From Escherichia coli (GTDB lineage: Bacteria > Pseudomonadota > Gammaproteobacteria > Enterobacterales > Enterobacteriaceae), in NCBI RefSeq assembly GCF_003790525.1, contig NZ_CP033635.1: a DNA stretch of 64,000 bases, one strand, 5' to 3'. The translations under genes were made by a program, and so were the position numbers. The notes under the pieces were generated by a model. The model was given only the letters and a program-made list of their open reading frames with translations, did not search any database and was not told where the DNA came from. How positions within the stretch are numbered: the stretch's first letter is position 1; each line of letters opens with the position of its first letter. Positions 3,687 to 15,136 of this stretch are shown piece after piece.

Positions 3687-3853
3687 TTATTGTGGTCGGT
3701 GACGCTGACTCTGGCAGATCTGACCCGTTTTTACATAATCGAGAAATGCGCGCAAGCCGCAGGACATATACTGGCGGTTTGGGTAATACATTTGGAAGCT
3801 GTGCTGTAAGGGCGCTAGAAATAGAGCCCTGAATTATTTATGCAGCACGGAAT

Positions 3854-3895: not shown

Positions 3896-4636
3896 TTAGA
3901 ACATTACCTTATGACCGTACTGCTCAAGAATGCTTTTCACGCGTTCCATGGTCTCTTTCTTCGGTGGTTTAACACCATCAAGTTTGTATTCTTCACCCAT
4001 CGCCACCCATTTGTGTTTGCCCAGCTCGTGGTAGGGGAGAAGCTCGATTTTCTCAACGTTGCCCATATCACGGGTAAATTCACCGAGGCGATGCGCTGAA
4101 TCGTCATCGTCAGACCAGCCAGGGACAACAACGTAGCGGATCCACACCTTAACATCTTTGTTCGCCAGATATTTAGCGAACTCCAGTGTACGGTGGTTAG
4201 ATACGCCAACCAGATTCTGGTGAATTTCGTCGTTCATCTGTTTGAGATCGAGCATTACCAGGTCGGTTACTTCCAGCAGTTCATCAATCACCGGATCGTA
4301 ACGACGAACAAAACCGTTGGTATCCAGACAGGTATGAATGCCTTCTTTTTTGCAGGCGCGGAACCAGTCACGAACAAACTCAGCTTGCAGGATTGCTTCA
4401 CCGCCGGATGCGGTAACGCCGCCGCCGGAAGCGTTCATAAAGTGGCGATAGGTCACCACTTCCTTCATCAAATCTTCAACGGTAACTTCTTTACCGCCAT
4501 GCGTGTCCCAGGTGTCGCGGTTATGACAATACAGGCAGCGCATCAGGCAGCCCTGGAAAAAGGTGATAAAGCGAATACCCGGGCCGTCTACGGTTCCACA
4601 GGATTCAAAGGAGTGAATGCGACCAATAACTGACAT
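3896..4636 (-). CDS. pflA: Pyruvate formate-lyase activating enzyme (radical SAM)
   Basis: Track ORF 3896..4663; start trimmed to [20 protein letters not shown] (246 aa); radical-SAM CxxxCxxC motif [10 protein letters not shown]. Confidence 0.95.
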
Positions 4637-4827: not shown

Positions 4828-7110
4828 TTACATAGATTGAGTGAAGGTACGAGTAATAACGTCCTGCTGCTGTTCTTTAGTCAGCGAGTTGAAACGTACT
4901 GCGTAGCCAGATACACGGATGGTCAGCTGCGGATATTTTTCCGGGTTTTCCATCGCGTCGAGCAGCATTTCACGGTTCATCACGTTAACGTTCAGGTGCT
5001 GACCACCTTCGATGGACGCTTCGTGGTGGAAGTAACCATCCATCAGACCAGCCAGGTTGGTCTTACGAACTTCGTCGTCTTTACCCAGTGCGTTCGGAAC
5101 GATAGAGAAGGTGTAGGAGATACCATCTTTAGCGTAAGCAAACGGCAGTTTAGCAACGGAAGTCAGAGAGGCTACTGCACCTTTCTGGTCACGACCGTGC
5201 ATCGGGTTAGCACCCGGCCCGAACGGCGCGCCAGCACGACGACCGTCTGGGGTGTTACCAGTTTTCTTACCATACACAACGTTAGAAGTGATGGTCAGAA
5301 CAGACTGAGTCGGGATAGCGTCACGGTAGGTGTGCAGTTTCTGAATTTTCTTCATGAAACGTTCTACCAGGTCAACAGCCAGGTCATCTACACGCGGATC
5401 GTTGTTACCAAACTGCGGGTATTCGCCTTCGATTTCGAAGTCGATAGCCAGACCGTCTTCGTCACGAATCGGTTTAACTTTCGCATATTTGATTGCAGAC
5501 AGGGAGTCAGCAGCAACGGACAGACCAGCGATACCACACGCCATGGTGCGGATAACGTCACGGTCGTGCAGCGCCATCAGAGAGGCTTCGTAGCTGTACT
5601 TGTCGTGCATGTAGTGGATGATGTTCAGTGCAGTGATGTACTGTTTAGCCAGCCAGTCCATGAAGTGATCCATGCGCTCCATCACTTCATCGTAGTTCAG
5701 GAGATCGCCTTTGATCGGTTCAGACTTCGGACCAACCTGCATTTTCAGTTTTTCGTCAACGCCGCCGTTGATTGCGTACAGCATGGTTTTCGCCAGGTTT
5801 GCACGCGCACCGAAGAACTGCATTTGTTTACCAACGATCATCGGGCTTACGCAGCAAGCGATAGCGTAGTCATCGTTGTTGAAGTCCGGACGCATCAGGT
5901 CATCGTTCTCATACTGCAGAGAAGAGGTGTCGATGGACACTTTAGCAGCGAATTTCTTGAAGTTCAGCGGCAGTTTTTCGGACCACAGAATGGTCATGTT
6001 CGGTTCCGGAGACGGACCCATGGTGTACAGGGTGTTCAGGAAACGGAAGCTGTTTTTGGTAACCAGGGTACGACCGTCGAGGCCCATACCACCGATAGAT
6101 TCGGTTGCCCAGATTGGGTCGCCAGAGAACAGTTCATCGTATTCCGGAGTACGCAGGAAGCGAACCATACGCAGTTTCATGACCAGGTGGTCAACCATTT
6201 CCTGCGCTTCTTGTTCGGTGATCTTGCCAGCTTTCAGGTCACGTTCGATGTACACATCCAGGAAGGTGGAGGTACGACCGAAGGACATTGCAGCACCGTT
6301 CTGAGACTTAACAGCAGCCAGGTAGCCGAAGTAAGTCCACTGGATAGCTTCCTGAGCGTTGGTAGCCGGACCAGAGATGTCGTAGCCGTATTTCGCAGCC
6401 ATTTCTTTCATCTGACCCAGAGCGCGGTGCTGTTCAGCGATTTCTTCGCGCAGACGGATAGTCTGTTCCAGGTTTACGCCGTTTTCCAGATCAGCCTGCA
6501 GAGAGGTGAACTGAGCGTATTTGTCTTTCATCAGGTAGTCGATACCGTACAGCGCAACGCGACGGTAGTCACCGATGATACGACCACGGCCATAAGCATC
6601 TGGCAGACCGGTCAGAACACCGGATTTACGGCAACGCAGGATGTCCGGAGTGTAAACGTCGAACACGCCCTGGTTGTGAGTTTTACGGTATTCAGTGAAG
6701 ATTTTTTTGATCATCGGGTCCAGTTCGCGGTTGTACGCTTTGCAGGAACCTTCGATCATTTTGATACCACCGAACGGGATAAGAGCACGTTTCAGCGGAG
6801 CTTCAGTCTGCAGACCAACAACTTTTTCCAACGCTTTGTTGATGTAGCCAGCGTCGTGAGAGGTGATGGTGGAAGCAACAGCGGTGTCAAAGTCAACTGG
6901 CGCGTGAGTGCGGTTTTCCAGTTTAACGCCTTCCATTACTTTGTCCCACAGGGTGGTGGTCGCTTCAGTAGCGCCAGCCAGGAAGGACTCGTCACCCTCG
7001 TACGGAGTGTAGTTTTTCTGAATGAAGTCACGGACGTTTACTTCATTCTGCCAGTCACCTTTGGTAAAACCTTCCCAGGCTGTGGCTAACTTTTCATTAA
7101 GCTCGGACAT
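4828..7110 (-). CDS. pflB: Pyruvate formate-lyase (glycyl radical enzyme)
   Basis: 760-aa [18 protein letters not shown]...; glycyl-radical motif RVSGYAV near the C-terminus; strong codon bias leaves a 750-aa antisense open frame. Confidence 0.97.
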
Positions 7111-7164: not shown

Positions 7165-8022
7165 TTAATGGTGATCGTTTTCACGCAGGTAAATGACCCA
7201 GTATGTCAACCCAACCAACAAACCACCGCCGATAATATTACCGATCGTAACCGGAATCAGGTTATCAGTGATGAAGTTCATCACGGTCAGGTGAGAAAAA
7301 TTTTCCGGTGCAGAACCGACAGCGGTCCAGAATTCCGGAGATGCGAAGTCGCGGATTACAATACCCATCGGGATCATAAACATGTTTGCGATACTGTGCT
7401 CAAAACCGCTGGCAACAAACATCGCGACCGGCAGCACCATAATGAACGCTTTATCCATCAGGCTGCGGCCAGAATAACTCATCCATACTGCCAGACATAC
7501 CATCAGGTTTGCCAGGATACCAAGGCAGACGGCCTCAATAAAAGTATGGTGCACTTTGTGGTCGGCGGTTTGTAGGACGTTTAGTCCCCATTGACCATTC
7601 GCGGTCATATACTCGCCGGAAAGCCACATTAAAAGTACAAACAGCAGTGCGCCGACCAGGTTGCCAAAATAGACATTTAGCCAGTTTTTCGCCAACTGAC
7701 CCCAGGTGATGCGCCCACTCGCCTTAGCAACAACAATCAACACTGTGGAAGTAAAGAGATCGGCTCCGCAGACAACACAAAGAATCAGCCCCAGAGAGAA
7801 GCAAATGCCGCCAACCAGTTTTGCCATGCCGAAGGGCATTGTTCCTGTGCCAGTGGTTGCTGTGATATAGAAGACGAATGCGATTGAGATGAAAACACCG
7901 GCGGTAATCGCCAGATAGAAAGTCTTAAGCGGATGTTTCGTTGCTTTATAGACACCTGCCTCTTCGGCCACTTTGGCCATTGCTGCAGGAAGTAAAAGAT
8001 CAAAAGGGTTGTCAGCTTTCAC
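7165..8022 (-). CDS. focA: Formate channel FocA (FNT family), GTG start
   Basis: Track ORF 7165..8361 stays open upstream; the recognised FocA N-terminus (V)KADNPFDLLLPAAMAKV begins at a GTG (revcomp of 8020-8022); 285 aa. Confidence 0.88.
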   Translation of the reverse strand: MKADNPFDLLLPAAMAKVAEEAGVYKATKHPLKTFYLAITAGVFISIAFVFYITATTGTGTMPFGMAKLVGGICFSLGLILCVVCGADLFTSTVLIVVAKASGRITWGQLAKNWLNVYFGNLVGALLFVLLMWLSGEYMTANGQWGLNVLQTADHKVHHTFIEAVCLGILANLMVCLAVWMSYSGRSLMDKAFIMVLPVAMFVASGFEHSIANMFMIPMGIVIRDFASPEFWTAVGSAPENFSHLTVMNFITDNLIPVTIGNIIGGGLLVGLTYWVIYLRENDHH

Positions 8023-8392
8023 ACTAACTCTCTCTTTATTAAGTCGGCGACGAGATACTAACAAAGCATTATAGATGAGAAATTGATATAGATCATATCT
8101 CGCCTGGCTTATAGGCCCGTAACTCGCATGGTTTTTATGCAAATACGGAGTAAATATTTGATTATCCAAATAAAAATAAATTTTAAAAATTAACAAATGA
8201 GTTGAATTTTTTCCGCATCCTCCGCTAAAACAGTTAATTAAAAGGGAGCACCAGGCGAATAAAGTAACAATATCGATCGTATTTATTAAATACAAATTAC
8301 CGATACTTAACTTTATAATTACAATTATTTTATTAATGCAAATATATGTAAAGCGGGGCATTAAAAAAACGCCCCGTAATATAACTCAGATG
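8023..8392 (-). promoter_or_regulatory. AT-rich multi-promoter control region upstream of focA-pflB
   Basis: 370-bp very AT-rich non-coding tract between focA and ycaO; position corresponds to the known FNR/ArcA/IHF-controlled pfl promoter region. Individual sites other than the FNR box were not resolved. Confidence 0.5.
8083..8096 (-). promoter_or_regulatory. FNR-box-like palindrome in the pfl/focA promoter region
   Basis: TTGATATAGATCAT matches the FNR consensus TTGAT-N4-ATCAA at 9 of 10 positions, about 60-75 bp upstream of the focA GTG; the pfl operon is a classical FNR target. Confidence 0.55.
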
Positions 8393-8427
8393 AATCAAAT
8401 AGCCTACATTGCGTAGGCTATTTGATT
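8393..8427. repeat. 15-bp perfect inverted repeat abutting the ycaO stop codon (putative terminator)
   Basis: AATCAAATAGCCTAC-ATTGC-GTAGGCTATTTGATT; perfect 15-bp arms with a 5-nt loop, immediately 3-prime of ycaO on the reverse strand. Confidence 0.5.
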
Positions 8428-10188
8428 TTATTTTGCCCAGAATGCCGCTTTGGCGCGCTGCAGCTTTTCGTAGGCTTTCAGCAACGATTGATGTGCAGCA
8501 AACGCGTGCAGATCGCTATCTACTGGTTGCAAGCCATAAAACGCCGCTTCGCCGCTCATTGCCGCACTGGCGGCTTCCACGGCGTCTGCGCCATACATAC
8601 GAACGAAGGCATTCAGATATTGCAGCGGTTGGCGGTCTTCTTCCTGTGCCAGTAATAACAACGTTTGCAGACAGCGATAATAGTTGGCGCGTTCCGGACT
8701 GAACACTGATGAGTTAAATTCCATCGTCCATTCAGTCCAGACCAGAGCCTGTTCCAGATCGCCACCAGCCAGCGCCAGCATGGCTTTTAATTCACCGATA
8801 CGCAGGGTGTACCAACCGTTATCCGGTCCGGTCGCCAGACCCAGTAGTTCACGTACGCGAGTAAAGTCATCAAAACCTTCTTCATCCAGTTGCTCGATGA
8901 GGTTCAGGTAATCTTCTTTTTCCCACACACTGCCTGGTAGCGAGAGAATGGTTTCACGTAAATGGCTACCCATACTGTTATTCGCTAACCACAGATCTTC
9001 AGCCGGATAAATATCGGACATGCCAGGCACGATAATACGGCAAGCATAAACGCCCAGATGCTCGTAATCGGCAATATAAACTTCTTTATCTTCTTTGTTG
9101 AAGATAGCCATCAGCGTAGCAAACTCTTCTTCCGTAGTGCCGGAGAAATTCCAGTCCACAAACGGATAATCGGCATCCTGCTTGAACAGGTCCCAGGAGA
9201 TTAAACCGCTGGAATCGATAAAGTGCGTTTCGAGGTTGGTATGTTCAGCAACTTCTTCATCATCGAAGGTTGGCGGAGTAAACACATCCAAATCTTTCAG
9301 GCCACGACCTTGCAGCAGCTCGGTCACGGTACGTTCCAGTGCTACGCCAAAATCAGGATGCGCACCGAAAGAGGCAAAGCAGGTGCCGTTAGCAGGATTA
9401 AACAGAACCACGCAAATCACCGGATACTGGCCGCCAAGCGAACCATCATAAGCAAAGATTGGGAAACCTTCTGCTTCCAGTGTTTCGATCGCTTCAACCA
9501 CCGCTGGGTAACGCGCCAGCACGTCTGCCGGGATTTCCGGCAAGCTGATGCTTTCAGCAATAATGCGGTTTTTCACGTAGCGTTCGAAAACTTCGGACAA
9601 TCCCTGAACGCGTGCTTCGTTACGGGTATTGCCAGCAGACATACCGTTAGAAACGTACAAGTTACCAATGATATTCATCGGAATATAAATGGTCTGGTTG
9701 TCGGACTGGCGCGTAAACGGTAGACCACAAATACCACGATCTTCGTTACCGGATTGCAGGTCAATCAGCATACTACCGGTCAGTTCATTCTCCGGATCGT
9801 AAAATGCGCGCAGACGGTCATCGAGCAGCCCTTCTGGTACATCGTCATTTTCGGTCAGTGGGAACCATTTTTCGTTGGGATAATGCACGAATGGGCCGTT
9901 GGCGATGGTTTCGCCCAGCCAGAAGTCCGCAAAAAAGTAGTTGGTTGAGAGACGCTCGAAATATTCACCGAGTGCAGAAGCCAGCGCCGCTTTTTTGGTT
10001 GCGCCTTTACCGTTGGTAAAACACAGTGCGCACTCTTTGTCGCGAATATGTACAGACCAGACGTTAGGCACGGGATTCAGCCAGGAGGCCTCTTCAATCT
10101 GAAAGCCGAGGTCTGAAAGTTTTTGCTGGAAGCGAGCGATGGAATCTTCCAGTGCGGCATCTTTGCCGGGGATAAATGTTTGCGTCAT
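8428..10188 (-). CDS. ycaO: YcaO-domain protein (with RimO, ribosomal protein S12 beta-methylthiolation)
   Basis: Track ORF 8428..10221; start trimmed to MTQTFIPGKDAALEDSIARF (586 aa), recognised as E. coli YcaO. Confidence 0.92.
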   Translation of the reverse strand: MTQTFIPGKDAALEDSIARFQQKLSDLGFQIEEASWLNPVPNVWSVHIRDKECALCFTNGKGATKKAALASALGEYFERLSTNYFFADFWLGETIANGPFVHYPNEKWFPLTENDDVPEGLLDDRLRAFYDPENELTGSMLIDLQSGNEDRGICGLPFTRQSDNQTIYIPMNIIGNLYVSNGMSAGNTRNEARVQGLSEVFERYVKNRIIAESISLPEIPADVLARYPAVVEAIETLEAEGFPIFAYDGSLGGQYPVICVVLFNPANGTCFASFGAHPDFGVALERTVTELLQGRGLKDLDVFTPPTFDDEEVAEHTNLETHFIDSSGLISWDLFKQDADYPFVDWNFSGTTEEEFATLMAIFNKEDKEVYIADYEHLGVYACRIIVPGMSDIYPAEDLWLANNSMGSHLRETILSLPGSVWEKEDYLNLIEQLDEEGFDDFTRVRELLGLATGPDNGWYTLRIGELKAMLALAGGDLEQALVWTEWTMEFNSSVFSPERANYYRCLQTLLLLAQEEDRQPLQYLNAFVRMYGADAVEAASAAMSGEAAFYGLQPVDSDLHAFAAHQSLLKAYEKLQRAKAAFWAK

Positions 10189-10317
10189 GAAAATCACTTT
10201 AGTCGTACGGAAAGCGCGCAATAATACGGGTTTTATCTCAAAGGCGCTATCACCGCCGCCATGCCGATGAACTGTTGACTATGCTTTTAGTGGATAAACC
10301 ACGATAAGAGCATAAAA

Positions 10318-11010
10318 ATGAAGGCGTTCGATCTCCACCGTATGGCATTTGATAAAGTGCCTTTTGATTTCCTTGGCGAAGTGGCACTACGTAGTCTTTA
10401 TACCTTTGTACTGGTTTTTTTGTTCCTCAAAATGACCGGAAGACGCGGTGTGCGGCAGATGTCGCTTTTTGAAGTGTTAATCATTCTGACGCTGGGATCA
10501 GCGGCGGGAGATGTGGCGTTTTATGATGATGTGCCGATGGTCCCGGTACTTATCGTCTTTATCACTCTGGCGTTGTTATACCGCCTGGTAATGTGGTTGA
10601 TGGCGCACAGTGAAAAACTGGAAGATCTTCTGGAAGGCAAGCCGGTTGTCATTATTGAAGATGGCGAGCTGGCCTGGTCAAAACTCAACAACTCCAACAT
10701 GACGGAATTTGAGTTCTTTATGGAGCTACGATTGCGCGGTGTGGAACAGCTGGGGCAGGTACGTCTGGCGATTCTCGAAACCAACGGGCAAATCAGTGTT
10801 TATTTCTTTGAAGATGACAAGGTGAAACCGGGCTTACTTATTTTACCCAGTGACTGTACTCAGCGTTACAAAGTGGTGCCGGAGTCGGCGGACTATGCCT
10901 GCATCCGTTGCAGTGAAATCATTCATATGAACGCGGGGGAAAAACAATTATGTCCGCGCTGTGCAAATCCAGAATGGACGAAGGCAAGTCGGGCAAAACG
11001 GGTGACGTGA
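10318..11010 (+). CDS. ycaP: UPF0702/DUF421 membrane protein YcaP
   Basis: 230-aa ORF with hydrophobic N-terminal half; C-terminal CIRC...CPRC motif; divergent from ycaO. Confidence 0.88.
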   Translation: MKAFDLHRMAFDKVPFDFLGEVALRSLYTFVLVFLFLKMTGRRGVRQMSLFEVLIILTLGSAAGDVAFYDDVPMVPVLIVFITLALLYRLVMWLMAHSEKLEDLLEGKPVVIIEDGELAWSKLNNSNMTEFEFFMELRLRGVEQLGQVRLAILETNGQISVYFFEDDKVKPGLLILPSDCTQRYKVVPESADYACIRCSEIIHMNAGEKQLCPRCANPEWTKASRAKRVT

Positions 11011-11208: not shown

Positions 11209-12297
11209 ATGGCTCAAATCTTCAATTTTAGTTCTGGTCCGGCAATGCTACCGGCAGAGGTGCTTAAACAGGCTCAACAGGAACTGCGCGACTGGAACGG
11301 TCTTGGTACGTCGGTGATGGAAGTGAGTCACCGGGGCAAAGAGTTCATTCAGGTTGCAGAGGAAGCCGAGAAGGATTTTCGCGATCTTCTTAATGTCCCC
11401 TCCAACTACAAGGTATTGTTCTGCCATGGCGGCGGTCGCGGTCAGTTTGCTGCTGTTCCGTTGAATATTCTCGGTGATAAAACCACTGCAGATTATGTTG
11501 ATGCCGGTTACTGGGCGGCAAGTGCCATTAAAGAAGCGAAAAAATACTGCACGCCTAATGTCTTTGACGCCAAAGTGACTGTTGATGGTCTGCGCGCGGT
11601 TAAGCCAATGCGCGAATGGCAACTCTCTGATAATGCTGCTTATATGCATTATTGCCCGAATGAAACCATCGACGGTATCGCCATCGACGAAACGCCAGAC
11701 TTCGGCAAAGATGTGGTGGTCGCCGCCGACTTCTCTTCAACCATTCTTTCCCGTCCGATTGACGTCAGCCGTTATGGCGTGATTTACGCTGGCGCGCAGA
11801 AAAATATCGGCCCGGCAGGCCTGACAATCGTCATCGTTCGTGAAGATTTGCTGGGCAAAGCGAATATCGCGTGTCCGTCGATTCTGGATTATTCCATCCT
11901 CAACGATAACGGCTCCATGTTTAACACGCCGCCGACATTTGCCTGGTATCTGTCTGGTCTGGTCTTTAAATGGCTGAAAGCGAACGGCGGTGTAGCTGAA
12001 ATGGATAAAATCAATCAGCAAAAAGCAGAACTGCTGTATGGGGTGATTGATAACAGCGATTTCTACCGCAATGACGTGGCGAAAGCTAACCGTTCGCGGA
12101 TGAACGTGCCGTTCCAGTTGGCGGACAGTGCGCTTGACAAATTGTTCCTTGAAGAGTCTTTTGCTGCTGGCCTTCATGCGCTGAAAGGTCACCGTGTGGT
12201 CGGCGGAATGCGTGCGTCTATTTATAACGCCATGCCACTGGAAGGCGTTAAAGCGCTGACAGACTTCATGGTTGAGTTCGAACGCCGTCACGGCTAA
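11209..12297 (+). CDS. serC: Phosphoserine aminotransferase
   Basis: 362-aa [27 protein letters not shown]... recognised as SerC. Confidence 0.97.
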
Positions 12298-12316
12298 TGT
12301 CGAAATTTTGCTTAAT

Positions 12317-12345
12317 CCCCACAGCCAGCCTGTGGGGTTTTTATT
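12317..12345 (+). terminator. serC-aroA intercistronic hairpin with T-run (attenuator)
   Basis: CCCCACAG-CCAGC-CTGTGGGG followed by TTTTTATTT, 20 bp after the serC stop and upstream of aroA. Confidence 0.6.
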
Positions 12346-12367
12346 TCTGTTGTAGAGAGTTGAGTTC

Positions 12368-13651
12368 ATGGAATCCCTGACGTTACAACCCATCGCCCGT
12401 GTCGATGGCACTATTAATCTGCCCGGTTCCAAGAGCGTTTCTAACCGCGCTTTATTGCTGGCGGCATTAGCACATGGCAAAACAGTATTAACCAATCTGC
12501 TGGATAGCGATGATGTTCGCTATATGCTTAATGCGTTAAAGGCATTAGGGGTAAGCTATACGCTTTCAGCCGATCGTACGCGTTGCGAAATCATCGGTAA
12601 CGGCGGTCCATTACACGCAAAAAGCGCCCTGGAGTTGTTCCTCGGTAACGCCGGAACGGCAATGCGTCCGCTGGCGGCAGCTCTTTGTCTGGGTAGCAAT
12701 GATATTGTGCTGACCGGTGAACCGCGTATGAAAGAACGCCCCATTGGTCATCTGGTGGATGCGCTGCGCCTGGGCGGGGCGAAGATCACTTACCTGGAAC
12801 AAGAAAATTATCCACCATTGCGTTTACAGGGCGGCTTTACTGGCGGCAACGTTGACGTTGATGGCTCCGTTTCCAGCCAGTTCCTCACCGCACTGTTAAT
12901 GACTGCGCCTCTTGCACCGGAAGATACGGTGATTCGTATTAAAGGCGATCTGGTCTCTAAACCTTATATCGACATCACACTCAATCTGATGAAGACGTTT
13001 GGTGTTGAAATTGAAAATCAGCACTATCAACAATTTGTCGTTAAAGGCGGGCAGTCTTATCAGTCTCCGGGTACTTATTTGGTCGAAGGCGATGCATCTT
13101 CGGCTTCTTACTTCCTGGCAGCAGCAGCAATCAAAGGCGGCACTGTAAAAGTGACCGGCATTGGACGCAACAGTATGCAGGGTGATATTCGCTTTGCTGA
13201 TGTGCTGGAAAAAATGGGTGCGACCATTTGCTGGGGCGATGATTATATTTCCTGCACGCGTGGTGAACTGAACGCCATTGATATGGATATGAACCATATT
13301 CCCGATGCGGCGATGACCATTGCCACCGCGGCGTTATTTGCAAAAGGCAACACCACGCTGCGCAATATCTATAACTGGCGTGTTAAAGAGACCGATCGCC
13401 TGTTTGCGATGGCAACAGAACTGCGTAAAGTCGGTGCGGAAGTCGAAGAGGGGCACGATTTTATTCGCATTACGCCACCGGAAAAACTGAAATTTGCTGA
13501 GATCGCCACTTATAATGATCACCGGATGGCGATGTGTTTCTCGCTGGTCGCATTATCAGATACGGCAGTGACGATTCTTGATCCCAAATGCACGGCCAAA
13601 ACATTTCCGGATTATTTCGAGCAGCTGGCGCGGATTAGCCAGGCAGCCTGA
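12368..13651 (+). CDS. aroA: EPSP synthase (3-phosphoshikimate 1-carboxyvinyltransferase)
   Basis: 427-aa [38 protein letters not shown]... recognised as AroA. Confidence 0.97.
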
Positions 13652-13697
13652 ATGAACAACGTGCAATAAATAGCCAAATCTTTCTTTATCAAAACGT

Positions 13698-13710
13698 CGG
13701 CACATTGCCG
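13698..13710. repeat. Left copy of 13-bp target-site duplication flanking IS4
   Basis: CGGCACATTGCCG immediately left of the IS4 left end; identical 13-mer at 15137-15149. Confidence 0.85.
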
Positions 13711-15136
13711 TAATGCCGATCAGTTAAGGATCAGTTGACCGATCCAGTGGCTGTGTAAGAATCCGGAAACGCTCACTTGTTTCCGGATTTTTTTATGCAC
13801 ATTGGACAGGCTCTTGATCTGGTATCCCGTTACGATTCTCTGCGTAACCCACTGACTTCTCTGGGGGATTACCTCGACCCCGAACTCATCTCTCGTTGCC
13901 TTGCCGAATCAGGTACTGTAACGCTACGCAAGCGCCGTCTTCCCCTCGAAATGATGGTCTGGTGTATTGTTGGCATGGCGCTTGAGCGTAAAGAACCTCT
14001 TCACCAGATTGTGAATCGCCTGGACATCATGCTGCCGGGCAATCGCCCCTTCGTTGCCCCCAGTGCCGTTATTCAGGTCCGCCAGCGCCTGGGAAGTGAG
14101 GCTGTCCGCCGCGTGTTCACGAAAACAGCGCAGCTCTGGCATAACGCCACGCCGCATCCGCACTGGTGCGGCCTGACCCTGCTGGCCATCGATGGTGTGT
14201 TCTGGCGCACACCGGATACACCAGAGAACGATGCAGCCTTCCCCCGCCAGACACATGCCGGGAACCCGGCGCTCTACCCGCAGGTCAAAATGGTCTGCCA
14301 GATGGAACTGACCAGCCATCTGCTGACGGCTGCAGCCTTCGGCACGATGAAGAACAGCGAAAATGAGCTTGCTGAGCAACTTATAGAACAAACCGGCGAT
14401 AACACTCTGACGTTAATGGATAAAGGTTATTACTCACTGGGACTGTTAAATGCCTGGAGCCTGGCGGGAGAACACCGCCACTGGATGATACCTATCAGAA
14501 AGGGAGCGCAATATGAAGAGAGCAGAAAACTGGGTAAAGGCGATCATCTGGTGAAGCTGAAAACCAGCCCGCAGGCACGAAAAAAGTGGCCGGGACTGGG
14601 AAATGAAGTGACAGCCCGCCTGCTGACCGTGACGCGCAAAGGAAAAGTCTGCCATCTGCTGACGTCGATGACGGACGCCATGCGCTTCCCCGGAGGAGAA
14701 ATGGCGGATCTGTACAGTCATCGCTGGGAAATCGAACTGGGATACAGGGAGATAAAACAGACGATGCAACTGAGCAGGCTGACGCTGAGAAGTAAAAAAC
14801 CGGAGCTTGTGGAGCAAGAGCTGTGGGGTGTCTTACTGGCTTATAATCTGGTGAGATATCAGATGATTAAAATGGCGGAATATCTGAAAGGTTACTGGCC
14901 GAATCAACTGAGTTTCTCAGAATCATGTGGAATGGTGATGAGAATGCTGATGACATTGCAGGGCGCTTCACCGGGACGTATACCGGAGCTGATGCGCGAT
15001 CTTGCAAGTATGGGACAACTTGTGAAATTACCGACAAGAAGGGAAAGGGCCTTCCCGAGAGTGGTAAAGGAGAGGCCCTGGAAATACCCCACAGCCCCGA
15101 AAAAGAGCCAGTCAGTTGCTTAACTGACTGGCATTA
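13711..15136 (+). mobile_element. Insertion sequence IS4, complete copy
   Basis: Exactly 1426 bp; imperfect terminal inverted repeats TAATGCCGATCAGTTAAGG (left) and GCTTAACTGACTGGCATTA (right); single intact transposase ORF; flanked by a perfect 13-bp direct repeat. Confidence 0.93.
13795..15123 (+). CDS. insG: IS4 transposase
   Basis: Track ORF 13777..15123; start trimmed to [20 protein letters not shown] (442 aa), recognised as the IS4 transposase; no frameshift or internal stop. Confidence 0.93.

Follow-up and report, generated by a model that had tools for sequence, protein, structure and literature searches.

The closest known counterpart of the gene studied here is that for YcaO of E. 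coli K-12 (EcYcaO; UniProt P75838; crystal structures PDB 4Q84, 4Q85 and 4Q86). Rice et al. (2026; PMC13063428) combined a knockout with co-expression and with reconstitution in vitro, and showed that EcYcaO forms a backbone thioamide at Met82 of ribosomal protein uL16. The thioamide was lost in a ycaO deletion, showing that EcYcaO is necessary in vivo, and uL16 was fully thioamidated on co-expression with EcYcaO. Purified EcYcaO thioamidated full-length uL16 only with Na2S, MgCl2 and ATP, and is thus sufficient in vitro. The enzyme binds uL16 with a Kd of ~10 nM and requires the folded full-length protein, peptides of 11 to 24 residues not being modified. Klebsiella and Pseudomonas YcaO orthologues likewise thioamidate uL16, and an E202A variant is the inactive control. 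E. coli encodes no TfuA or ThiS-type sulfur delivery. The same authors describe a very acidic protein (pI ~4.4), complementary to basic uL16, and a C-terminal tetratricopeptide repeat (TPR)-like domain of ~150-170 residues in the EcYcaO group; this YcaO_C domain serves in dimerisation and may contribute to uL16 binding (PMC13063428).

Three other YcaO systems are relevant for comparison. The methanogen YcaO proteins, which act with or without TfuA and form the thioglycine of methyl-coenzyme M reductase (MCR), share with EcYcaO an ATP-dependent backbone oxygen-to-sulfur exchange in a folded protein, and neither is a RiPP system (PMC13063428). The azoline-forming cyclodehydratases of TOMM and cyanobactin pathways (SagD, BalhD, LynD/PatD) have the YcaO ATP-binding fold and the amide-activation mechanism in common with EcYcaO. 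Their nucleophile is a Cys, Ser or Thr side chain, whereas EcYcaO uses external sulfide. The OsmC-YcaO fusions (TIGR03549) carry an additional N-terminal OsmC-like domain of ~147 aa.

We analysed a stretch of 64,000 nucleotides of E. coli DNA (the window). The sole long ORF at the locus spans 8428-10221 on the minus strand, and the annotated start codon lies within it. The gene, its domains and its neighbours are as follows:

8428-10188, minus strand: ycaO CDS, 586 aa, with ATG at 10188 (annotated start) and TAA at 8428-8430 (ORF and translation, RefSeq, NF040716 and PDB 4Q84 match)
9016-10014, minus strand: YcaO catalytic (ATP/Mg2+-binding) domain, residues 59-391, including E199, E202 and R203 (Pfam PF02624)
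8446-8970, minus strand: YcaO_C tetratricopeptide-like C-terminal domain, residues 407-581 (Pfam PF18381)
7165-8022, minus strand: focA (formate channel), GTG start, first gene of a separate focA-pflB operon (RefSeq)
4828-7110, minus strand: pflB (pyruvate formate-lyase) (ORF list, RefSeq)
3896-4636, minus strand: pflA (PFL-activating enzyme) (RefSeq)
10318-11010, plus strand: ycaP (DUF421 membrane protein), divergent and upstream of ycaO (RefSeq)

The gene is intact in the window. The chromosome of E. coli SMS-3-5 is 100% identical to the window and its CDS is annotated as ycaO in RefSeq; among 5426 complete E. coli genomes, 5422 contain the region with a coverage of at least 80%. Pfam searches assigned YcaO at E 9.3e-75, with model positions 1-325 of 325 matched, and YcaO_C at E 1e-64. 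The protein passes the equivalog threshold of NCBIfam NF040716 ('YcaO_for_S12'; 914.9 bits, with the cutoff at 700 and 570 of 571 model positions covered) and scores 573.9 bits with TIGR00702 (cutoff 75.65). PDB entries 4Q84, 4Q85 and 4Q86 matched across all 586 residues, 583 of them identical. These results confirm the gene identity, coordinates and strand given in an earlier note on this DNA.

The gene is the same as that of K-12 in chromosomal position, in its two domains, in its catalytic residues and in the acidic pI of its product. The window allele carries three substitutions (V167I, E421V and S455P; K-12 residue first), none of which falls in a column invariant among 25 diverse homologues. 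E202, R79 and the G60-K61-G62 motif are invariant in these homologues, E75, E78, E199, R203, R286 and E290 are nearly so, and all are present in the window allele. The computed pI is 4.39 (91 D+E against 42 K+R), which matches the acidic hallmark reported by Rice et al., and ranges from 4.36 to 4.95 in all 77 orthologues tested from 80 loci. The C-terminal TPR-like domain of the uL16-thioamidating group is likewise present (PF18381). With 99.5% identity (3 of 586 residues differing), the K-12 biochemistry would extend to this allele, and we infer that the window enzyme would also thioamidate uL16.

Similarity to the other systems is more distant. The methanogen MCR-type model TIGR03266 is matched only remotely (38.2 bits against a cutoff of 365), and PDB 6PE3, a relative of methanogen YcaO, at E 6e-4. 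The catalytic core is common to both proteins, while the substrate differs, and the window YcaO additionally possesses the C-terminal TPR domain and a large electrostatic interface. For the TfuA-associated class, the score was below the cutoff, no tfuA is annotated next to the gene and no recurrent neighbour was seen in 80 loci. In contrast to the azoline-forming cyclodehydratases, the window YcaO has neither a fused or adjacent E1-like/RRE partner nor a precursor peptide, and by score, partner and precursor it falls outside the SagD type. The YcaO and C-terminal parts of the OsmC-YcaO fusions align with it over their full length (679 bits, TIGR03549 model positions 148-722), and one representative fusion (P0123) is 53% identical. 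However, the OsmC-like domain is absent and the whole-protein score is under the cutoff of 900.

We then investigated the ycaO-focA spacer, which comprises 405 nt (8023-8427). The following elements were found:

8393-8427, minus strand: perfect 15-bp inverted repeat AAUCAAAUAGCCUAC / GUAGGCUAUUUGAUU, directly 3' of the ycaO stop codon
8340-8376, minus strand: probable intrinsic terminator of ycaO, a 9-bp G+C-rich stem-loop (8354-8376; GGGGCGUUU/AAUGCCCCG...), then CUUUACAUAUAUUU (fold and comparison)
8324-8352, minus strand: distal sigma-70 promoter-like site TTTACA-17-AATAAT for focA-pflB, 10/12 consensus matches
8083-8096, minus strand: FNR box aTGATctatATCAA, centred 67.5 nt upstream of the focA GTG (read from the sequence)
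8055-8060, minus strand: TAGTAT, a -10-like hexamer downstream of the FNR box

The 111-nt stretch holding both hairpins 3' of ycaO has a fold z of -5.6. The inverted repeat lacks a U tract, and little of its sequence is conserved from genus to genus. The terminator element recurs as ACGGGGC...GCCCCG(U)UUUUU in 11 other Enterobacteriaceae genera; its inner stems differ between genera yet stay complementary, with the compensatory pair GGAGCG/CGCUCC. This comparison rests on per-sequence folds, since loops of variable length misalign the 3' arms and upset column-wise covariation. In E. coli the U tract is interrupted (CUUUACAUAUAUUU) and is the weakest of the genera compared; a consensus terminator scanner made no call at 8340-8376 in E. 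coli. Terminator-like hairpins lie 3' of ycaO in 36 of 46 focA-linked loci and, when all loci are counted, in 60 of 79, compared with 64 of 237 shuffles; the remaining 10 of the 46 have no match under the criteria used. The only Rfam match in the spacer, AbsR25, is sub-threshold (27.4 bits against a gathering threshold of 47, E 0.22), lies over the terminator hairpins and was dismissed as chance.

The remainder of the spacer appears to belong to focA-pflB. The -35 hexamer of the distal promoter-like site overlaps the terminator tail, a TGTAAT just downstream of the site is conserved in a 12-genus alignment, and RpoD genomic SELEX (PMC3946193) lists the two hexamers TTTACA and AATAAT for the focA/ycaO spacer. 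Of the 46 linked loci, which range from Escherichia to Aeromonas, 45 have an FNR box whose centre lies 65.5 to 78.5 nt before focA (36 within one mismatch of TTGAT-N4-ATCAA and nine with two), and the block with this box is nearly invariant in the 12-genus alignment. FNR/ArcA control of focA-pflB is stated in the literature (PMC11841067, PMC3798270). A frame open upstream of focA was considered as an N-terminal extension of FocA and rejected; it runs for 113 codons here, 48 in another E. coli and 0-86 elsewhere, as expected by chance.

An earlier study described the synteny of ycaO, focA and pfl across Gammaproteobacteria (Watson et al. 2020; PMC7550191). We scanned 80 species loci and scored linkage within 10 kb. 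The ycaO and focA genes are linked in 46 loci, comprising Enterobacterales and Aeromonas, and their spacer measures 285-647 nt in every one. Grimontia shows partial linkage, with ycaO, an unrelated 522-aa ORF and then pflB-pflA. Linkage within 10 kb was not found in Shewanella, Pseudoalteromonas, Methylophaga and others. Upstream neighbours differ in Aeromonas, yet ycaO-focA-pflB is kept. When the flanking ORFs of the 80 loci were clustered, no neighbour outside the Enterobacterales block recurred across orders. The sampled non-Enterobacterales neighbours are unrelated genes (gloB, type II asparaginase, GNAT acetyltransferase and a thioredoxin-like protein). The ycaP gene, whose product gave no match in an NCBIfam search, is adjacent in only 19 of 80 loci and is therefore not regarded as a YcaO partner; the AlphaFold3 ipTM of its product with YcaO is 0.11 (PMC13063428 supplementary data).

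Because the spacer is at least 285 nt and contains terminator-like hairpins, a conserved FNR box and a SELEX-listed promoter, ycaO and focA-pflB look like independent transcription units, as judged from the DNA. A co-transcribed member of focA-pflB would have a short gap, no terminator and no separate promoter, and ycaO does not show this arrangement. A passage in Watson et al. (2020; PMC7550191) likewise concludes that ycaO and focA-pfl are transcribed independently, citing Sawers 2005. The earlier note was correct about the 405-nt spacer, which the gene coordinates reproduce, and about the absence of an adjacent precursor peptide or partner, the flanks being focA and ycaP and the spacer ORFs not being conserved. 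It had also regarded the position next to focA-pflB as conserved, and would have given up its view if ycaO were both transcriptionally independent and conserved in position only within Escherichia. The former is supported by these sequence features; the latter fails, since the position is conserved well beyond Escherichia (46 linked loci of 80).

Taken together, this feature is very probably the standard chromosomal ycaO of E. coli, encoding the uL16 thioamidase and transcribed separately from focA-pflB. Three other explanations have to be weighed. RefSeq and NCBIfam names both assign an S12/RimO role, and the earlier note gave assistance to RimO as the only assigned role of YcaO. According to the account in PMC13063428, YcaO co-purified with tagged uS12 in the work of Strader et al. 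(2011), and S12 modification fell from 99% to 84% in a ycaO deletion. However, a uS12 peptide is modified in vitro by RimO on its own, none of the modification is left in a rimO deletion, and AlphaFold3 ipTM values with YcaO are 0.31 for uS12 and 0.16 for RimO, against 0.8-0.87 for uL16 (PMC13063428). The S12 effect of the ycaO deletion may be indirect, via ribosome assembly. Given that direct activity on uL16 Met82 has been reconstituted (PMC13063428), the statement in the earlier note is outdated, and we consider it very unlikely that YcaO is primarily an accessory factor for methylthiolation of S12 Asp88/89 by RimO. The label "accessory factor" for RimO/S12 is a legacy one. A cryptic RiPP enzyme, with its precursor unannotated in the spacer or flanks, is hardly conceivable. 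Most characterised YcaO enzymes modify small precursor peptides encoded nearby, and the spacer does hold three ORFs of 21-26 codons. Nevertheless, in other genera two of them no longer have their start, frame or stop. The third ORF (8128-8193, plus strand) is antisense to focA and lies in the DNA-conserved promoter block, keeping its length only because this block is free of indels, while its N-terminal half varies freely. The SagD-type model TIGR03604 gives 43.6 bits against a cutoff of 219.25, and focA and ycaP are, by annotation, not of E1-like, RRE or TfuA partner types. With an enzyme that ignores short peptides in favour of folded uL16 (PMC13063428), a hidden precursor is effectively refuted.

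The remaining explanation is that ycaO is functionally coupled to focA-pflB, either by partial co-transcription through read-through or by a formate/sulfide physiological link to uL16 thioamidation. In the read-through form, transcription past the ycaO terminator would give basal or aerobic focA-pflB expression. In favour of coupling, the U tract of the E. coli terminator is weak and shares sequence with the -35 hexamer of the distal focA promoter, and uL16 thioamidation needs a sulfide equivalent. In addition, Enterobacterales and Aeromonas keep the genes adjacent on the same strand, as does Grimontia more loosely, even with differing upstream neighbours. On the other hand, terminator-like hairpins and a dedicated, conserved FNR promoter lie in a spacer that is never short. 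Linkage within 10 kb is absent from all 16 sampled Pasteurellaceae loci, although these species presumably carry pfl genes. P. aeruginosa is not known to carry pflB. Pseudomonas YcaO nevertheless thioamidates uL16 (PMC13063428), and thioamidated ribosomes came from aerobic cultures in the study that credits independent transcription to Sawers 2005 (PMC7550191). PflB was also considered as a second YcaO substrate, by analogy with glycine-modified MCR, and is rejected within the proteome-wide AlphaFold3 survey, where the ipTM of the pair is 0.14 (PMC13063428 supplementary data). We regard functional coupling as very unlikely. Same-strand adjacency across three orders exceeds what general collinearity would predict, and a selective reason for the linkage is possible because Aeromonas kept ycaO-focA-pflB while its upstream neighbours changed. 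We give little credence, though, to selection rather than accident as the cause of ycaO retention upstream of focA-pflB in Enterobacterales, Aeromonadales and Vibrionales. If the position were selected, possible routes would be regulated read-through at the weak E. coli terminator, the tail of which also serves as the distal focA -35, or a dependence of uL16 thioamidation on the sulfide and redox conditions of fermentative growth.

For the preferred reading, a separately transcribed uL16 thioamidase gene, the following model may be drawn. The ycaO transcript would be monocistronic and end at the intrinsic terminator 50-90 nt past the stop codon. The 405-nt spacer would then be the multi-promoter, FNR/ArcA-controlled region of the separate focA-pflB operon, starting at the terminator tail. 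The homodimeric, very acidic and ATP-dependent YcaO would bind folded uL16, the Met82 backbone carbonyl would be activated by ATP-dependent phosphorylation, and its oxygen would be exchanged for sulfur, yielding a thioamide adjoining the peptidyl-transferase centre. In our interpretation, the adjacency may be an ancestral gene order from a common ancestor of Enterobacterales, Aeromonadales and Vibrionales. It might have been kept without any shared function, since nearly every intergenic base would be functional and would leave few harmless breakpoints for rearrangement.

The gene, its structure, its substrate (March 2026) and the focA-pfl synteny (2020) are all published already, and nothing here is new; the locus carries little weight as a discovery. 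Coupling to focA-pflB, if true, would tie anaerobic physiology to a modification at the peptidyl-transferase centre and might give a lead to the sulfur donor. The practical value of the analysis lies in the correction of a name. "S12 methylthiotransferase accessory factor", as the databases call it, is misleading, and "uL16 Met82 thioamide synthase" is the better reading.

The ycaO gene of this window is an ordinary, already-characterised gene, and the earlier note named and located it correctly; the spacer that separates it from focA measures 405 nt, the same figure as in that note. The genes of the locus are arranged as follows.

Genes at the ycaO locus
10318-11010, + strand: ycaP, divergent, upstream of ycaO; serC and aroA lie beyond it
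8428-10188, - strand: ycaO, intact, 586 codons, annotated
7165-8022, - strand: focA, GTG start, downstream of ycaO on the same strand
4828-7110, - strand: pflB, downstream of focA on the same strand
3896-4636, - strand: pflA, downstream of pflB on the same strand

A 4.2-kb query around ycaO matches NC_010498.1 (the E. coli SMS-3-5 chromosome) at 100%, and the region belongs to the core genome, with 5422 of 5426 complete E. coli genomes holding at least 80% of it. An IS4-family transposase gene (13777-15123, + strand; a 448-codon ORF equal to the annotated CDS span) lies between aroA and ycaL. Because this gap is only about 170 nt in another E. coli (L002), the gene is a strain-specific insertion. 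Between ycaM and pflA lies a short pseudogene that RefSeq lists as partial ("hypothetical protein, missing N-terminus"; 3687-3797, - strand).

The encoded protein contains a complete YcaO domain (Pfam; residues 59-391) and a YcaO_C domain (residues 407-581), and scores 914.9 bits against the NCBIfam equivalog NF040716 (cutoff 700). It fails the NCBIfam models for azoline-forming SagD (43.6 versus a cutoff of 219) and for methanogen McrA thioamidation (38.2 versus 365). It aligns with the crystallised K-12 YcaO (PDB 4Q84/4Q85/4Q86) along its full length of 586 residues and differs from it at three of them (V167I, E421V and S455P). In an alignment with 24 homologues (identity down to 37%), E202, R79 and the GKG motif are invariant and E75, E78, E199, R203, R286 and E290 nearly so; all are present in this allele. 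The computed pI is 4.39, and all 77 orthologues tested are likewise acidic (pI 4.36-4.95), consistent with the group of uL16-modifying enzymes that Rice et al. (PMC13063428) define. At the 50%-identity cluster level, the closest relatives include fusions such as P0123, a representative of 729 aa (53% identity; NCBIfam TIGR03549) in which an N-terminal OsmC-like (thiol peroxidase-type) domain precedes full YcaO and YcaO_C domains. These fusions could be relevant to a sulfur or redox partner of the uL16-type YcaO enzymes.

The statement in the earlier note that the only assigned role of YcaO is helping RimO has been superseded. In the E. coli ribosome at 2 Å, Watson et al. 2020 (PMC7550191) saw that Met82 of uL16 carries a backbone thioamide, for which they proposed YcaO as the leading candidate. 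Rice et al. 2026 (PMC13063428) found the thioamide missing in a ycaO deletion; co-expression of YcaO gave complete modification and ATP-site variants did not. In the same study, thioamidation of full-length uL16 by purified MBP-YcaO required Na2S, MgCl2 and ATP. The enzyme bound folded uL16 with a Kd of ~10 nM; it neither bound nor modified peptides 11 to 24 residues long. Orthologues from Klebsiella and Pseudomonas also thioamidate uL16, and E. coli has no TfuA (PMC13063428). The S12/RimO label is weak, because that study reports S12 methylthiolation lowered only from 99% to 84% in the deletion and RimO active alone in vitro, and because the AlphaFold3 interface scores with YcaO are low for uS12 (0.31) and RimO (0.16), compared with 0.8-0.87 for uL16. 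According to the literature, a ycaO deletion grows normally and acts as a suppressor of the slow growth seen in minimal medium when roxA is deleted. At 99.5% identity, we infer the same uL16 function for this allele.

We then investigated the locus outside Escherichia. One genome from each GTDB species was scanned with a profile, which yielded 80 loci with flanks of at most 10 kb per side; these were annotated by tblastn using the window's own proteins. The order ycaO-focA-pflB(-pflA) on one strand is found in 46 of them, from Enterobacteriaceae, Erwiniaceae, Yersiniaceae, Hafniaceae, Pectobacteriaceae, Morganellaceae, Budviciaceae and four Aeromonas species. Thus, the conserved position, which the earlier note had called unexplained, is real and extends beyond Escherichia, but it is not new, having been published by Watson et al. 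2020 (PMC7550191). No linkage within 10 kb was seen in any of 16 sampled Pasteurellaceae loci, or in Rosenbergiella, Shewanella, Pseudoalteromonas, Methylophaga, one Bacteriovoracaceae genome and one Desulfoarculaceae genome. In Grimontia hollisae (Vibrionaceae, L066), ycaO is followed by an ORF for a 522-aa multi-pass membrane protein (12156-13724, + strand) and then by pflB-pflA; this unrelated protein fills the place of focA and has no NCBIfam match. The other flank, serC-aroA-cmk, is equally conserved in Enterobacterales, indicating that part of the synteny signal is general collinearity. Aeromonas has different genes upstream of ycaO, yet keeps ycaO-focA-pflB. Clustering of all flanking ORFs in the 80 loci revealed no further neighbour common across orders, those sampled being unrelated genes. 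In 11 Yersiniaceae/Hafniaceae loci, the gene immediately upstream of ycaO (median 144 nt) encodes a type II L-asparaginase (NF008304, 663 bits) and takes the position of E. coli ycaP. At least L028 and L029 of these retain ycaP farther upstream, so the ycaP-ycaO adjacency is not fixed. An operon-like arrangement of ycaO and a gene downstream of it is seen at only one locus, in a Bacteriovoracaceae MAG (L074), where a GNAT/Pat-like acetyltransferase gene (11752-12360, + strand) starts inside the ycaO stop codon.

The spacer is never short in the 46 linked loci (285-647 nt). Its elements in E. coli are listed here.

Elements of the ycaO-focA spacer
8393-8427, - strand: perfect 15-bp inverted repeat directly after the ycaO stop codon, without a U tract
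8354-8376, - strand: second hairpin (probable ycaO terminator), G+C-rich, followed by CUUUACAUAUAUUU
8352-8324, - strand: promoter-like site TTTACA-17-AATAAT, its -35 overlapping the terminator tail
8083-8096, - strand: FNR box, aTGATctatATCAA in E. coli

The two strong hairpins directly 3' of the ycaO stop fall in a 111-nt stretch of -39.2 kcal/mol (z = -5.6). The second recurs in 11 other Enterobacteriaceae genera as ACGGGGC...GCCCCG(U) with a clean U run, the tract being imperfect in E. coli; the inner stems vary and are always paired (GCGC/GCGC, GCCG/CGGC, GCAAU/AUUGC and GGAGCG/CGCUCC, the last with a compensatory G-C to A-U change). A simple hairpin plus U tract within 150 nt of the ycaO stop is found at 36 of the 46 focA-linked loci and 60 of all 79 loci, compared with 64 of 237 shuffled controls. 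Of the 15-bp repeat, only a GTAGGC core recurs across other genera; it could protect the mRNA 3' end, bind a protein or be the remnant of a REP-like element. On the focA side, the ~100 nt immediately upstream of the gene are nearly invariant in a 12-genus alignment, and the FNR box lies 65.5-78.5 nt upstream of the focA start in 45 of the 46 linked loci, including Aeromonas. The hexamer pair of the promoter-like site is identical to one listed for the focA/ycaO spacer by RpoD-holoenzyme genomic SELEX (PMC3946193), focA-pflB is under FNR and ArcA control (PMC11841067, PMC3798270), and during gut adaptation focA is expressed more strongly when IS elements insert upstream of it (PMC5094792). From their sequences, ycaO and focA-pflB look like independent transcription units, for which Watson et al. 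(PMC7550191) cite Sawers 2005. Low-level read-through from ycaO into focA may occur, especially in E. coli, where the U tract is imperfect.

Three small ORFs (21-26 codons) exist in the spacer, two of which are disrupted in other genera. The third (8128-8193, + strand; 21 codons) is antisense to the focA promoter region; 10 of 12 genera have an ATG or GTG at the aligned start position, and none of the 12 carries an indel or an in-frame stop. This ORF coincides with an AT-rich, conserved promoter block and varies freely in its N-terminal half. Its length is kept only because it lies in this indel-free block, and what is constrained is probably the DNA itself. Upstream of the focA GTG, the reading frame also stays free of stops for 113 codons (8023-8361, - strand; 31-40% G+C). 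We attribute this to chance, because the extension lacks conservation, measuring 48 codons in another E. coli and 0-86 in other genera. The sole Rfam match in the spacer, to the Acinetobacter sRNA AbsR25 (8321-8424, + strand), is sub-threshold (27.4 bits versus a gathering score of 47; E 0.22), lies opposite the terminator hairpins and was judged a chance hit in hairpin-rich AT DNA.

A functional link between ycaO and focA-pflB is possible but has little support. In the proteome-wide AlphaFold3 scan (PMC13063428), YcaO-PflB scores 0.14 (YcaO-YcaP, 0.11), and the thioamidated ribosomes were derived from aerobic cultures (PMC7550191). The linkage is missing within 10 kb in every sampled Pasteurellaceae locus. 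P. aeruginosa is not known to carry pflB. Pseudomonas YcaO thioamidates uL16 (PMC13063428). Ancestral gene order without shared function is the best-supported explanation for the adjacency. Since the terminator tail adjoins the most distal focA promoter, there would be almost no neutral DNA between the two units, and we suggest that breakpoints for harmless rearrangements would consequently be rare.
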